Below the pieces are notes generated by a model. The model saw nothing but the letters and a program-made list of their open reading frames with translations, was not told the origin of the DNA and made no database searches. From NCBI GenBank assembly GCA_021821305.1, contig JAKACP010000001.1, positions 532,349 to 596,348 of the forward strand: a stretch of 64,000 bases of DNA, in the 5' to 3' direction. The translations under genes were made by a program, and so were the position numbers. Source of the stretch: a bacterium. GTDB lineage: Bacteria; Patescibacteriota; Minisyncoccia; Moranbacterales; UBA1568. Below are positions 41,061-60,613 of the stretch, one piece after another (position 1 is the first letter of the stretch; the number at the start of each line of letters is the position of its first letter).

Positions 41061-41111
41061 GTGATGAAAATTTTTTGGTATACTGGAGAGGTAACTTATA
41101 AGCAGTAAAGT

Positions 41112-41381
41112 ATGGACTCCATAGGATTAGGTTCAGCTATAGCCTCTGTCATCTATTCGCTGGTTTTTGTCTTATTTGTTGCTGGTCTTGCCGTGTTTAC
41201 ATTTAAGAAAAAATATCTACTAGCTTTCTTCTGGATTACATTGTTATCTAACCTGTTTCTTTTCCTGTATTTGATGGGACGTCATACCGGATTCTCTTAT
41301 TCGATAGTTTATATAATTTTGCCAATTTTGAATTTACTTCTGCTTTTCTCAATATTTTTCAGGTTATTCTTTAAAAAATAG
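41112..41381 (+). CDS. small membrane protein (89 aa)
   Basis: Three predicted TMs. Low-GC gene. TGGTATACT extended -10-like box at 41082-41090. Confidence 0.4.
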   Translation: MDSIGLGSAIASVIYSLVFVLFVAGLAVFTFKKKYLLAFFWITLLSNLFLFLYLMGRHTGFSYSIVYIILPILNLLLLFSIFFRLFFKK

Positions 41382-41385
41382 TGTT

Positions 41386-57207: not shown

Positions 57208-58416
57208 ATGAAAATAGCGATTCTGCAGACAAGTCTCGTAGAACCGACTGGCGGAGAACGCCAGTCGTTAATGCTTGCCTTGGAATTGCAGAAGCAGGGG
57301 CACGAGGTAACGATTTTCACGCAATCAGTAAATCGTACAAAGTGCTTCCCTGAATTGCAGAATCGACTGAAAATAGTGGCATGTTCAGGCGCGATTTCAT
57401 CACTTGAAGGAAAGGTTGTTGTCCGTAGATGGAATTTCAAATTCCTCTACCTTTTCCGCTATTATAAGAACTTTCTTCAGGCGAAAGCATTTTATAGCGG
57501 GATTCGTGAAACAATCGCTTCATTTGATGTCGTGAACTTCCACAACTATCCGATGGAATGGGTTGCGTTTTTCCTGAAGCGCGACTTCCCTGAAAAGAAA
57601 GCGGTCTGGATGTGTAATGAGCCCCCATTTTGGTATCTTACCCCGCAGAGTTGGCTTTCAAAATGGCTGAATTACCCACTTTTCCGATATTTTGACAAGG
57701 CCTGTATCAAGAGGATCGACAAGTTGGTCGTCTTGGATGAGTTGAACCGAAAAAGAGTATCAGATATCTACGGGAGGTCGGCTGAGCTTATTCGTAGCGG
57801 TGTCGAGACGAAAATCCATCCCTGGTCGCCTGAGGATATTTCTCGCTACAAACGAGAGCTTGGCTTCAAAGAGAACGATTTTATCATTCTCTTTGTAGCA
57901 ACTTTCGCGATGTACAAGAGACCTGATAAAGTAGTACTTTCCCTCATGGAACTTGTTGAGAAAAAAAACATCAAAGCTGTCTTGGTGGGAACAGGAGAGA
58001 TGGAGGATGAGTTACACCGGATGGTAGAGGACTCTAATCTTGAGCAGAGAGTCGTTTTTTTGAAACATCTTTCCGAGAATACGTTATCCAAATTGTATAG
58101 TATGGCCGATACGTTTGTGTTCCCCGCGAATCAGACATGGGGGCTTTCGGCTATCGAGGCCATGGCTCATGGAAAACCCGTTCTTATCTCACGCGATAGC
58201 GGAGTTTCCGAGGTGGTTCGCGATAATGACAATGCTCTTCTGATTAATGGATCGGATCCTCGAGATATCGCGCGGGGGATAAGATTTCTCTATGAAAATC
58301 GACAAGAAATCATACGAATTGGAGAGAGCGCACGGAAGTTCGTCATTGAGAACCTCTCTTGGGAGAATTATGCACTGAACATGCTGTCGCAGTTTCGTGG
58401 AGATGTCAAAGAATGA
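57208..58416 (+). CDS. glycosyltransferase family 4
   Basis: GGERQ at the N-terminus and FPANQTWGLSAIEAMAHGKPVL. Confidence 0.8.
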   Translation: MKIAILQTSLVEPTGGERQSLMLALELQKQGHEVTIFTQSVNRTKCFPELQNRLKIVACSGAISSLEGKVVVRRWNFKFLYLFRYYKNFLQAKAFYSGIRETIASFDVVNFHNYPMEWVAFFLKRDFPEKKAVWMCNEPPFWYLTPQSWLSKWLNYPLFRYFDKACIKRIDKLVVLDELNRKRVSDIYGRSAELIRSGVETKIHPWSPEDISRYKRELGFKENDFIILFVATFAMYKRPDKVVLSLMELVEKKNIKAVLVGTGEMEDELHRMVEDSNLEQRVVFLKHLSENTLSKLYSMADTFVFPANQTWGLSAIEAMAHGKPVLISRDSGVSEVVRDNDNALLINGSDPRDIARGIRFLYENRQEIIRIGESARKFVIENLSWENYALNMLSQFRGDVKE

Positions 58417-60593
58417 AAATTCTCACTATGTGGAAAAAATATAAATATCCTATCCTCCTTGTATTTCTTGCGTTTCTTACTCATATTCAGTGGTTTAACC
58501 CAGCATCGGTACTGAGTGATGGAGACTGGTATTACTGGACGGATCAATCAGTCAGGCAACTTCTTGTCTCATGGGGCACTTGGATAAGTTTTGTCAATCT
58601 TGGTATGACAAACATCCAGATCCCGTTCAATCTCTTTATGGCTCTCTGGTCCCTCATGGCCAATGCTGGGTTGTCATTTGACTCCGTGTCGAAGGTTGTG
58701 GTGTTTGTCCCCATGGCACTCCTCAGTTTTCTCTCCCCGTATGTTTTTGTCAAAAAACTTGTCTCGGAAAAGAGTATCGCATTTCTTGTGGCGGTCTTCT
58801 ACGGTACAACGACATACGGAATGGTAAACCAAGTTCCTATTCAGTTCGTCTATTCTCTGGCGCCGCTCATTTTTTATTTTTTTATAAATACTCTGGAGAA
58901 GAATACTCGGCGTTCCTGGATTGTTTTTACAATCGTTTATTGGATCGGAGTGTCTTACGAAATTCGAATCATGTACATATTGACGCTGTTGCTCTCGTCT
59001 TATCTCATCTTTTTCCATGCTCATGCAATCCGCAGATTCATTTACAACATCTTCCTCTCGCTCATTCTCTTTCTCGGCTTAAGCGCCTTTTGGCTCCTCC
59101 CAACATTCTCGGGAGAAACGTCGCAGCAGATTTCATCCGTGACAAGTAGAGACCTATTCGGAAACCAGTTATTTAGTCTCCAGCAATCATTCACTCTTTT
59201 TGTGTGGAACTGGACGGCAGCGAGGCCTGACAATCAATTTGATGTCCAACCGATCCTGTGGTATTTCTGGATACTTCCGCTGATCCTCACTGGATCATTG
59301 ATTTTTACTTTTCATCTTCACACCTCTAGCGAGAGGAGGCGAGTTTTGTTTTTCTGGTTAGTCGCTTTGATCGGTATCCTGATAACCAAACAAGTGGCAC
59401 AGCCGTTTCATGATTTATATCCTTTACTTTACAAGTACTTCCCTGGTTTCAATCTATTTCGAGAAGCCTCGAAATTTTATATCGTGATCGCTATCGGATA
59501 TGCCGGTTTGCTTGCATATGTACTTTCTTCCTGGAAGAGGACATGCGTTCGTCCTCTTGCAGTGACGATGTACCGCATGACCTTTGGCTTATTACTTACG
59601 GTATTTCTGTGGCAAGCGTCCCCTTTGATAACAGGGAGCGTAGGAGGGCTATTTGTCTCAAGGCACATTTCGGACGAATATAGGGCCCTTGAAAAGGAGT
59701 TGTCCCAGGAAAGCGAATTTATTCGGACACTATGGGTCCCAGTCTATTCACGCTGGAGTTTTTTCGATAACCAACATCCGATGGTCAACTTCGCGGTTGT
59801 CGCAGGAAATGAATGGAAAGACATCGGCCGGGAAGACGATGACCGAGAGAGAGAGTTTCCAATCAAGGGAACTATGCAAAGGATTTTGAATCGAGATTTT
59901 TCAGACAACCTCCTAGATGGAAGTTCAATAAAATATGTGATTGTTCCTCTATCGGACAAGGAGAACGACGATGACTTTTTCAGAAATTATGGAGATCGGA
60001 ATCGCATCGTGGATGAATTGGATGCACTACCTTATCTGCGCCGTTTGGATTTACCGTTAAAAGAGATAACTGTATACGAAAACGCCGATTACCGACCACA
60101 TATCTACATTACCAAAGAGAGGGAAAGCATATTAAGGAAGGTTGACTATGTCCCTGTCGAGTTCTCATTTCAAAACCCGACCGAATATCATGTGAATCTA
60201 AAAAGTATTACAGGAGATACCTATCTAAATTTTTCTGATAAATATAGCGACGGTTGGATCGCAGTATTGGGGGAAGATTTTTCATGGGCAGATACTCTCT
60301 CAAACAGGTCAGTAAGCAGAAGTCTTGTTCTTCCTGATGATTTCCACTTCCGAAATGATGCAGGGCTAAATTCCTTCCTGATTAATCCTGAATATATCAA
60401 AGAGAATCTTCCGAAAGATCAGTATCACGAAAATCCCGATGGCTCGATCGACCTCGAATTGACGCTCTATTTCAAGCCACAGTCGTATTTCTATCTCGGT
60501 CTCATAATCTCCGGGACGACTCTGGCCGCTTGCCTGGGCTATTTGGGTTGGGTAGGCCTCCGCTCTTGGCGGGAAAAGAGGCGGGGAAGTTGA
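58413..60593 (+). CDS. large polytopic membrane protein with C-terminal extracytoplasmic domain and terminal TM (GT-C/YfhO-like glycosyltransferase or polymerase, putative)
   Basis: ATGA overlap with the upstream GT4. About 13 TMs, then a ~300-aa soluble domain and a C-terminal TM. Confidence 0.4.
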   Translation: MKILTMWKKYKYPILLVFLAFLTHIQWFNPASVLSDGDWYYWTDQSVRQLLVSWGTWISFVNLGMTNIQIPFNLFMALWSLMANAGLSFDSVSKVVVFVPMALLSFLSPYVFVKKLVSEKSIAFLVAVFYGTTTYGMVNQVPIQFVYSLAPLIFYFFINTLEKNTRRSWIVFTIVYWIGVSYEIRIMYILTLLLSSYLIFFHAHAIRRFIYNIFLSLILFLGLSAFWLLPTFSGETSQQISSVTSRDLFGNQLFSLQQSFTLFVWNWTAARPDNQFDVQPILWYFWILPLILTGSLIFTFHLHTSSERRRVLFFWLVALIGILITKQVAQPFHDLYPLLYKYFPGFNLFREASKFYIVIAIGYAGLLAYVLSSWKRTCVRPLAVTMYRMTFGLLLTVFLWQASPLITGSVGGLFVSRHISDEYRALEKELSQESEFIRTLWVPVYSRWSFFDNQHPMVNFAVVAGNEWKDIGREDDDREREFPIKGTMQRILNRDFSDNLLDGSSIKYVIVPLSDKENDDDFFRNYGDRNRIVDELDALPYLRRLDLPLKEITVYENADYRPHIYITKERESILRKVDYVPVEFSFQNPTEYHVNLKSITGDTYLNFSDKYSDGWIAVLGEDFSWADTLSNRSVSRSLVLPDDFHFRNDAGLNSFLINPEYIKENLPKDQYHENPDGSIDLELTLYFKPQSYFYLGLIISGTTLAACLGYLGWVGLRSWREKRRGS

Positions 60594-60613
60594 TTTTCGG
60601 CTATAATGGGAAT

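Follow-up and report, generated by a model that had tools for sequence, protein, structure and literature searches.

The present work concerns a segment of low guanine-plus-cytosine (GC) content, 41065-60600, within a 64,000-nucleotide stretch of DNA (hereafter the window) from a bacterium of the Patescibacteriota lineage Moranbacterales, UBA1568 (GenBank assembly GCA_021821305.1, contig JAKACP010000001.1, forward-strand positions 532,349 to 596,348). We consider it likely that a conserved locus for cell-envelope glycosylation in Moranbacteria has its variable centre in this low-GC stretch, which is organized as a four-part mosaic whose modules are swapped by recombination. The parts of the mosaic are (A) a lipase-Fic module at 40967-45379, (B) a block of core genes at 45380-48330, (C) a strain-specific cassette at about 48.4-60.6 kb, and (D) a right-hand pair of genes of intermediate GC content (at least 60.6-64 kb), which accompanies the same cassette in other assemblies. 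The features of the locus are collected in Table 1.

Gene Content of the Locus

The protein of the AAA+ family encoded at 35174-37576 places the host lineage. In a scan of GTDB species genomes, its close relatives were found only in metagenome-assembled genomes of Candidatus Moranbacteria/Moraniibacteriota, at 62-72% amino acid (aa) identity, with one partial match (L010) at 81%; a few of these Moranbacteria-related records are labelled otherwise, e.g., as "uncultured Bdellovibrionales". Proteins of Saccharibacteria and Magasanikbacteria come next, at about 35%. The order of a glycosyltransferase (GT) of family GT4 (30456), the gene at 32057, a gene for a membrane protein, the AAA gene, two further GT4 genes, and an epimerase gene is kept in 11 GTDB relatives (L001-L011). 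Such a conserved upstream order at normal composition indicates that the low-GC stretch is embedded in a larger conserved glycosylation locus. No Pfam family was found for the upstream genes 32057-33211 and 33208-35097. Contigs of closer relatives were reached via homologues of the DUF218 gene and of the GT2 gene at 47368, and one of them, L088, comes from an independent ENA assembly (ERZ534008) and is related to the window at the conspecific level. The GT4 gene at 37578 is syntenic in L001-L011, L084, L086, and L088 (61-98% aa), as is the second one, at 38761, in relatives at 60-93% aa. The epimerase is 88-99.7% identical in L001, L011, L084, L086, and L088, and the alignments of L084 and L086 end exactly at 40966.

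Table 1. Features of the glycosylation locus in the window (positions are those of the window; aa, amino acids; GC3, GC content at third codon positions)
Position	Strand	Feature	Basis and remarks
37578..38789	+	GT4 glycosyltransferase, left backbone	Pfam Glycos_transf_1 and Glyco_transf_4; GC3 0.77
38761..39978	+	Second GT4-type glycosyltransferase, backbone	Pfam Glycos_transf_1; GC3 0.81 (on 38794-39978)
40004..40966	+	NAD-dependent nucleotide-sugar epimerase/dehydratase; last backbone gene, left anchor	Pfam Epimerase and GDP_Man_Dehyd
41027..41057	+	Intrinsic-terminator-like hairpin; left edge of GC drop	12-bp stem, 7 GC pairs, T-rich tail
41386..44157	+	LCAT/PGAP1-type lipase, secreted or membrane-anchored, 923 aa	Pfam LCAT, PGAP1, Lipase_2; PDB LipA-like match; AHSMGG nucleophile elbow
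44232..45302	+	FICD-like Fic-domain protein, degenerate active-site motif QPFEDGNKRTSR	Pfam Fic
45427..45969	+	DUF218/YdcF-family protein; core gene, deeply diverged alleles	Pfam DUF218
45983..46013	+	Terminator-like hairpin after DUF218	14-bp stem, 7 GC pairs
46053..47405	+	MOP/Wzx-type polysaccharide flippase; core gene	Pfam Polysacc_synt
47368..48309	+	GT2 polyprenyl-phosphate glycosyltransferase (GtrB/ArnC/DPM1-like); last conserved gene before cassette	Pfam Glycos_transf_2
48358..49461	+	GT4 glycosyltransferase; transition zone, alleles diverged between strains	Pfam; 74% aa to L088, 69% to L089
49458..50306	+	GT2 glycosyltransferase; first gene of low-GC strain-specific cassette	GC 0.40, GC3 0.38
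50303..51286	+	Fcl-like short-chain dehydrogenase/reductase (SDR); candidate GDP-4-keto-(3,)6-deoxyhexose epimerase/reductase	Pfam Epimerase; PDB Fcl matches
51308..51775	+	Nudix hydrolase, GDP-mannose mannosyl hydrolase-like	Pfam NUDIX; NCBIfam PRK15434 81 bits, cutoff 146
51786..52958	+	ColD-type PLP/PMP-dependent GDP-4-keto-6-deoxymannose 3-dehydratase (putative)	Pfam DegT; best PDB match ColD/WbdK 2gms
52969..54048	+	GDP-mannose 4,6-dehydratase (Gmd)	NCBIfam TIGR01472 equivalog, 565 bits vs 415-bit cutoff
54060..55043	+	Second Fcl-like SDR	NCBIfam and PDB comparison
55064-56224	+	GT4	Pfam; GC3 0.48-0.50 across the three GTs 55064..58416
56212-57204	+	GT2	Pfam
57208-58416	+	GT4	Pfam
58413..60593	+	Polytopic membrane glycosyltransferase of predicted GT-C fold, 726 aa; last low-GC gene	AlphaFold model and Foldseek; no Pfam family
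60611..62101	+	496-aa membrane-anchored protein	GC3 0.66; no Pfam family; hydrophobic stretch near N-terminus by eye
62175..64000	+	Second large polytopic membrane protein, runs off window end	Open frame 62160-63998; GC3 0.66; no Pfam family

The lipase is 53% identical overall to its allele in L088, with residues 1-600 at 25-51% and residues 601-923 at 84-93%, and its first ~600 codons are as distant from this conspecific allele as from those of distant relatives. The 5' 2.1 kb of the gene (about 41.1-43.2 kb) is a strain-variable, anciently diverged allele, and the 3' third is conserved. The lipase is present in L001, L011, and L081 (49-58%) and absent from L084 and L086. Both the lipase and Fic genes are missing from L084/L085, where the epimerase stop codon (40966) joins the region upstream of DUF218 (45380) directly. 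The interval 40967-45379 is a presence/absence (indel) module.

The closest PDB match of the Fic-domain protein is human FICD, whose HPFIDGNGR aligns to QPFEDGNKR, i.e., the His is changed to Gln and GNGR to GNKR; an inhibitory-helix-type motif, SSRIEG, is retained. The orthologue in L088 (6865-7935) is 99.4% identical and that in L089 90%. In L089 this gene lies between GT2 and GT4, in another place of the locus than in the window, directly after a canonical Fic gene, L089a (HPFVDGNGRTAR); the two Fic genes of L089 are located at 4538-5572 and 5898-6974. The motif of the window protein is identical in L088 and L089b, and none of the three proteins matches the active AMP-transferase motif HxFx(D/E)GNGRxxR. 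As the same degenerate motif occurs in three genomes, the Fic gene appears to be maintained, but its product is probably not an AMP-transferase.

The DUF218, flippase, and GT2 genes recur at the same position in related assemblies. They are core Moranbacteria genes, found in all relatives, yet GC-depressed and allelically diverged: here and in relatives their GC content at third codon positions (GC3) is 0.49-0.72, compared with 0.75-0.89 in the backbone. DUF218 is identical in L088 (100% aa) but reaches only 65% in L084 and L086, for which the backbone genes give 80-98%, and the flippase reaches 98.4% in L088 and 77-78% in L085 and L089. The GT2 at 47368 is 97.8% identical in L088 and 90% in L084/L085. 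It has hundreds of homologues at 67-98%, the few named ones belonging to Moranbacteria or Patescibacteria and often annotated as polyisoprenyl-phosphate glycosyltransferases; its NCBIfam matches, PgfS and ArnC-like, both lie under the cutoff. A small membrane protein of the GtrA/DPMS family is encoded on the minus strand at 12612-13076, with normal composition (GC3 0.87) and 33 kb from the glycan locus; polyprenyl-phosphate GT2 enzymes may have in it a candidate partner that acts as flippase.

In the cassette that follows, genes for five GT2/GT4 enzymes and a membrane transferase of GT-C fold accompany those for Gmd, a ColD-type 3-dehydratase, two Fcl-like reductases, and a Nudix hydrolase. 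In the locus as a whole, nucleotide-sugar genes, GTs, a Wzx-type flippase, and GT-C are co-located, as expected of a surface-polysaccharide locus. The DegT-family protein at 51786 matches ColD/WbdK in the PDB over its full length (E 3.5e-63), and the SHH stretch of ColD, which we take to hold the active-site His replacing the aminotransferase Lys, is aligned to GHH. A perosamine synthase, considered for this gene, was rejected: its PDB match is at 5e-23, i.e., ColD is favoured by 40 orders of magnitude, and a His stands at the expected position of the aminotransferase Lys. For the two Fcl-like SDRs, the best NCBIfam match is GDP-L-fucose synthase, at 148 and 166 bits with an equivalog cutoff of 500. 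Of the steps of a colitose route, Gmd is present, and a ColD-type dehydratase is present at the level of sequence similarity. Taken together with the SDRs and the Gmm-like Nudix hydrolase that flank them, Gmd and the ColD-like protein suggest that GDP-mannose serves as the precursor of a putative 3,6-dideoxyhexose of the colitose type and/or of a 6-deoxyhexose.

The last gene of the cassette encodes a 726-aa protein which is predicted to adopt a GT-C fold. Its AlphaFold model, built on a 48-sequence alignment, has a pLDDT of 91.3, and each of the top 17 Foldseek matches to PDB structures is a GT-C enzyme, AftD coming first (E 2.8e-9), followed by STT3, DPY19, PglB, ALG12, and AftA. Residue D38 is nearly invariant in this alignment and is placed in the first external loop by the helix positions of the predicted model. 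There are 86 homologues, the best at 55% identity, and all named ones belong to the Candidate Phyla Radiation (CPR): Patescibacteria, Moranbacteria, Parcubacteria, or Saccharimonadales. This CPR-only naming holds for the homologues of the GT-C protein, the cassette gene covered by the donor search.

Of the right-hand pair, the 496-aa protein shows 26-27% full-length identity to proteins of 477 and 483 aa at the equivalent position in two other assemblies, L093 and L094, and the terminal membrane protein is 47-48% identical to proteins of 721 and 724 aa at the same position there. No close relatives of either were found in scans of JGI metagenomes. A protein of 480-570 aa with no Pfam match is repeatedly encoded just 3' of GT-C, i.e., in the window, in L093 (12084-13517), L094 (15295-16746), L096 (3348-4967), and L097 (12188-13897); the window protein has no detectable similarity to its counterparts in L096 and L097. 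Such a protein might serve the GT-C transferase as a partner or as its substrate.

Composition and Boundaries of the Low-GC Segment

Direct counts give a GC content of 46.7% for 41065-60600 and 59.5% for the background, 1-41064. The latter figure is a few points lower than the 62-65% estimated by eye in a first-pass annotation, which had singled out this segment as compositionally atypical; the anomaly itself is real, as GC, GC3, codon usage, and tetranucleotide signature all deviate. In 1-kb windows, the background has a mean GC of 0.595 (standard deviation 0.024, range 0.546-0.656), and 18 of the 19 windows of the segment fall under the lowest background window. The sub-blocks 41065-44200, 44200-49100, and 49100-60600 have GC contents of 0.471, 0.521, and 0.442, so the by-eye figures for them were approximately right, although the ~43% given for the first one holds for 41-42 kb only (0.43). 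Genes of the segment have GC3 values of 0.38-0.71, compared with 0.80 ± 0.05 in 28 background genes (z = -1.7 to -8.5), and codon adaptation indices to the background set of 0.30-0.62, compared with 0.69 ± 0.06 (z = -1.2 to -6.6). Their GC1 and GC2 are lower as well, and the amino acid composition is likewise shifted. Over 48-60 kb, the composition-normalised tetranucleotide correlation with the background is 0.72-0.84, compared with 0.94 ± 0.02. The segment is internally heterogeneous, in composition as well as in history.

The left edge of the GC drop adjoins the hairpin at 41027-41057, which agrees with the terminator claimed there in the first-pass annotation, and the intergenic region 41058-41385 behind it has a GC content of 32%. 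On the right, a GC step does occur near 60.6 kb, where the boundary had been placed. However, it reaches 0.54 only, both next genes having a GC3 of 0.66; background composition is never regained between 60.6 kb and the window end, and the conserved architecture of the cassette goes on beyond this point.

Comparison with Related Assemblies

In L088, the AAA protein is 98% identical to that of the window, the two GT4 enzymes 98% and 93%, and the epimerase 99.7%. Nucleotide (nt) identity in 250-nt bins is mostly 92-100% at 37.4-41.0 kb, falls to an unalignable level (about 50-60%) at 41.18-43.18 kb, returns to 85-100% at 43.2-48.2 kb (mostly 97-100% beyond 44.2 kb), decreases to 65-76% at 48.4-49.4 kb, and is lost past 49.43 kb, where the sequences are unalignable. 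The breakpoints of identity are therefore located at about 41.1, 43.2, 48.3, and 49.45 kb. The gene found in L088 at the position of the GT2 at 49458 is only 33% identical to it.

Other relatives show other configurations. L084 was considered as a conspecific and rejected, as its backbone is 91.5% identical at the nt level, which makes it a sister lineage. L086/L087/L083 have the same junctions as L084/L085 (40966, 45380); after DUF218, they carry another cassette, with a PMT-family GT-C, Gmd (75% aa to that of the window in L083), an epimerase, a flippase, methyltransferases, and GTs, along which GC3 drops from 0.72 to 0.30 (L086/L083). The order in L001, L011, and L081 is epimerase, lipase, SDR, DUF218, YdjC, GT2, and that in L089 is flippase, GT2, YdjC, canonical Fic, the orthologue of the window Fic, GT4. 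On the left, the anchor that runs from AAA over the two GT4 genes to the epimerase, and on to DUF218, flippase, and GT2, is conserved in L001-L011 and L084-L089, and the window, L088, L084/85, L086/83, and L089 all differ in gene content or alleles. The variable segments thus differ between strains at fixed junctions, which is most simply explained by recombination in conserved flanks.

A collinear cassette was found in L093 and L094/L095, reached via the two best relatives of GT-C; L093 and L094 stem from metagenomes, and those of their relatives that bear a name are all CPR bacteria. In the first part of the cassette, aa identities in L093/L094 are 71-72% for GT2, 57-59% for the first SDR, 73-74% for the ColD-like protein, 83-86% for Gmd, and 65-68% for the second SDR; in the second part, they are 83/68% for GT4, 58/56% for GT2, 51/53% for GT4, and 51-54% for GT-C. 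A short insert lies 3' of GT-C, which consists of a cupin gene in L093 and of genes for an AAA_14/DUF4143 ATPase and an IS200-like Y1 transposase in L094 (12507-14639, between the GT-C and 483-aa genes), and is followed by the genes for the ~480-aa protein and then the ~720-aa membrane protein. The GC content of the cassette is 33-45% in L093, with 53-56% in the DNA to the right, and 36-50% in L094, with about 50% to the right. Independent genomes thus show the 60.6-kb step as well, and the conserved architecture extends past it. The GC3 of the window cassette, 0.48-0.55, lies above that of its orthologues in L093/L094 (0.30-0.52), which fits partial amelioration during a long residence in a 60%-GC genome. 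The more distant GT-C contexts, L096 and L097, do not share this cassette and represent other glycan contexts in low-GC CPR contigs. Genes of a selfish or defence type thus occur in related variable regions, in the insert of L094 and also in L091, where glycan genes are interspersed with genes for a PemK toxin, an NYN nuclease, and a radical-SAM protein (10959-11360, 15843-16415).

Sharp GC steps in a metagenome-type CPR genome might also arise by chimeric assembly or binning, in which a low-GC contig of another organism is joined to a high-GC Moranbacteria contig, and it is here that related short-read contigs tend to end (L085 at 49 bp past GT2, and L088 within the cassette). We give such an artefact hardly any credence. 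In the independently assembled L088, both junctions, at 41.1 kb and at 48.3 kb, recur and the genes follow in the order of the window as far as GT4, which excludes a chimera at these two places, and at 60.6 kb it is unlikely since in L093/L094 the cassette is likewise followed by the higher-GC pair of genes. Moreover, the genes are co-directional, with stop and start codons overlapping across junctions.

In all CPR contigs examined (L083, L091, L093, L094, L096, L097), the glycan cassette lies about 10-15 GC points under its own flanks. The dip is relative to the host, occurring with flanks of about 55% or about 36-40% GC, and in L096 and L097 the glycan region is at 24-27% and 25-30%, respectively. 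This observation raises the question of whether low GC is intrinsic to glycan loci, arising in place by selection or mutational bias (e.g., through expression level or membrane-protein content) with no foreign origin. The vertically inherited core genes for DUF218, the flippase, and GT2 are also GC-depressed, the dip extends to contigs of about 36% GC, and Reeves et al. remarked that the low GC of wzx and wzy "needs explanation". Nevertheless, we consider it unlikely that intrinsic bias is the explanation here: it accounts for composition and not for the turnover of gene content between near-identical strains, such as the different gene after GT4 in L088. In L093, some cassette genes are 83-86% identical to those of the window while the adjacent right-hand genes are at 27-48%, and GC1, GC2, and amino acid composition are shifted together with GC3. 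Intrinsic AT enrichment probably contributes and is compatible with the exchange of modules by recombination.

It is very improbable that the segment arose by the recent integration of one mobile genomic island, i.e., an integrative element, a prophage remnant, or a transposon-borne cassette. Such an origin would agree with the abrupt GC drop adjoining the terminator at 41.06 kb and with the accessory-type content (lipase, Fic), and the transposase and AAA_14 genes within the cassette region of L094 and the PemK and NYN genes in the variable region of L091 also speak for it. However, at least four breakpoints mark the segment as a mosaic, and its middle part is core and conserved. No integrase or transposase domains were found among the window open reading frames (ORFs) submitted to Pfam, no tRNA or Rfam family near 41065-60600, and no flanking direct repeats of the segment, the repeat search yielding short, chance-level repeats only; these searches agree with the first-pass annotation, which had reported none of these features. 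A BLAST of 8 kb of the cassette against phages and plasmids gave a single match, the conserved gmd (about 65% nt), and a scan of IMG/VR with the GT-C alignment returned no relatives.

A Proposed Recombining Glycosylation Locus

The hypervariable surface-glycan locus proposed in the first-pass annotation is supported by both gene content and strain comparison. Its acquisition by recombination stands insofar as the variable parts differ at fixed junctions among close relatives; it was not acquired as one 19.5-kb block, since the middle is conserved in L088 and the lipase and Fic genes form a separate indel module.

In the model that we favour, a recombining mosaic at a fixed glycosylation locus, variable modules would be exchanged by homologous recombination within conserved neighbouring genes, the source being a pool of low-GC glycan cassettes common to CPR bacteria, and no integrase or transposase would take part. 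Gmd would convert GDP-mannose to GDP-4-keto-6-deoxymannose, from which the ColD-type 3-dehydratase and the Fcl-like reductases may produce a 3,6-dideoxy (colitose-type) sugar and/or a 6-deoxyhexose. The five GT2/GT4 enzymes would then assemble a lipid-linked glycan, which the flippase would export, and the GT-C enzyme would move sugar onto a surface acceptor outside the membrane. The combination of a polyprenyl-phosphate GT2, a Wzx-type flippase, and GT-C supports such assembly on a lipid carrier with transfer outside the membrane. The outcome, as suggested by the flippase and the GT-C fold, would be a strain-specific surface glycan, presumably under diversifying selection by phages or by host recognition in this episymbiont.

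Several points weigh against this model. No Pfam match to an initiating phosphoglycosyltransferase (Bac_transf/WecA), to Wzy, or to a WaaL-type ligase was obtained among the window ORFs submitted, a set that did not comprise every ORF, and unannotated membrane proteins could hide a polymerase; with no initiator, polymerase, or ligase identified in the window, the class of pathway and the acceptor given above are predictions. Colitose, likewise, is a putative product, assigned through the resemblance of one protein sequence to ColD. Of the two conserved flanks that a replacement would involve, the window shows the left one; to the right, what is seen is the analogous pair of ~480-aa and ~720-aa proteins in L093 and L094. 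Low GC alone is no proof of a low-GC donor, since glycan loci are GC-depressed even in 36%-GC CPR contigs (L096, L097).

Similarity to Known Systems

In kind, the locus follows what has been known for a long time from the O-antigen and capsule loci. The galactose-initiated O-antigen clusters of Salmonella consist of segments of differing GC content, all under the genome average, and show a gradient of both GC and divergence toward the housekeeping genes at their flanks; their diversity has been ascribed to lateral transfer (PMC3715488). For the surface-polysaccharide loci of Enterobacteriales, co-location is thought to favour exchange via homologous recombination (PMC7305143). Like the enterobacterial O-antigen and capsule loci, the one described here combines nucleotide-sugar genes, GTs, a flippase, low-GC segments of differing GC, a gradation of GC and divergence toward the flanking genes, and variable gene sets with no mobility genes; judging from its left anchor, it also appears to occupy a fixed position. 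The GDP-colitose set (gmd, colD, and the fcl-like colC) is itself an O-antigen pathway, as in Escherichia coli O55 and O111. In contrast to O-antigen loci, the host is a CPR bacterium, and to our knowledge CPR bacteria have no outer membrane or lipopolysaccharide. No WbaP/WecA initiator, Wzy, or WaaL was found here, and transfer is predicted to be carried out by a GT-C enzyme whose family has named members in CPR bacteria only. The locus further contains a hypervariable allele of a lipase gene and a Fic protein with a degenerate motif, and its conserved flank is defined on the left.

Replacement-type flexible genomic islands, or "metagenomic islands", of free-living bacteria such as Alteromonas and Pelagibacter, in which glycan cassettes are replaced wholesale between strains, as thought to reflect phage-driven diversifying selection, offer a second parallel. 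They share with this locus strain-specific glycan cassettes at an equivalent genomic position; however, the evidence for them has come mostly from the recruitment of reads in marine taxa of high abundance, whereas here the comparison rests on a handful of short metagenome contigs. A third parallel is provided by the three-component systems of extracytoplasmic glycosylation, such as GtrA/GtrB/GtrC, ArnC/ArnT, and CsbB/GtcA/YfhO, which likewise comprise a polyprenyl-phosphate GT2, a flippase, and a GT-C-fold transferase. Unlike in those systems, the GT2 of the window falls under the PgfS and ArnC equivalog cutoffs, and the flippase is of the MOP/Wzx type; the five cytoplasmic GTs of the cassette suggest an oligosaccharide and not a single-sugar decoration. 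In the literature searched, no directly relevant paper on hypervariable glycan loci of CPR bacteria was found, which is no proof of novelty.

Other Observations in the Window

An IspH-like gene (by eye) at 29509-30459 is a compositional outlier, with a GC of 0.53, GC3 of 0.59, and codon adaptation index of 0.47 (background 0.60, 0.80, and 0.69), and may represent a separate replacement or transfer event. The prfB gene for release factor RF2 (7833-8937) contains a programmed +1 frameshift site: the upstream frame ends in "...LRLQDYL*" at CTT TGA C (7896-7902), and the downstream frame resumes with "DWDTKERE...", which is why ORF lists show the 3' part only (8008-8937). Between the HtrA-like and ClpB genes, ~620 bp (22806-23424; GC about 0.51-0.53) contain no convincing ORF, and a permissive scan of this interval gave no credible Rfam match; an RNA not yet described or the remains of a gene could lie there. 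The region 4900-6000 (GC 0.55) is devoid of ORFs with the usual GC3 pattern, and the ORF 5639-5938 resembles, by eye, a thioredoxin-like [2Fe-2S] ferredoxin. Finally, a TrwB/TraD-like type IV coupling-protein ATPase with a Pro/Ala-rich linker and a C-terminal treble-clef zinc finger is encoded at 16864-18882, adjoining two unannotated genes (15536-16867 and 18879-19739).

Implications for the Biology of CPR Bacteria

Experiments have so far revealed almost nothing about the cell surface of Moranbacteria or of other uncultured members of the CPR, for which a life attached to host cells is assumed. The locus described here appears to be a fixed chromosomal hotspot for strain differences in surface-glycan genes. 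It carries a putative deoxyhexose pathway otherwise known from Gram-negative O-antigens, and the catalytic half of the lipase exists as deeply diverged alleles next to the cassette. A broader and more doubtful proposal, which we put forward tentatively, is that CPR bacteria share a pan-lineage pool of exchangeable glycan cassettes, here a colitose-type module with a GT-C known so far only from CPR, which together with the adjacent hypervariable lipase might determine, at the level of strains, how these episymbionts attach to hosts, scavenge lipids, and escape phages, and might be kept 10-15 GC points under the genome by selection and not by donor composition. The locus also explains why short-read assemblies break here, and its glycan genes, GT-C, and the lipase could plausibly be used in CPR populations to type strains and as markers of host range and of susceptibility to phages.

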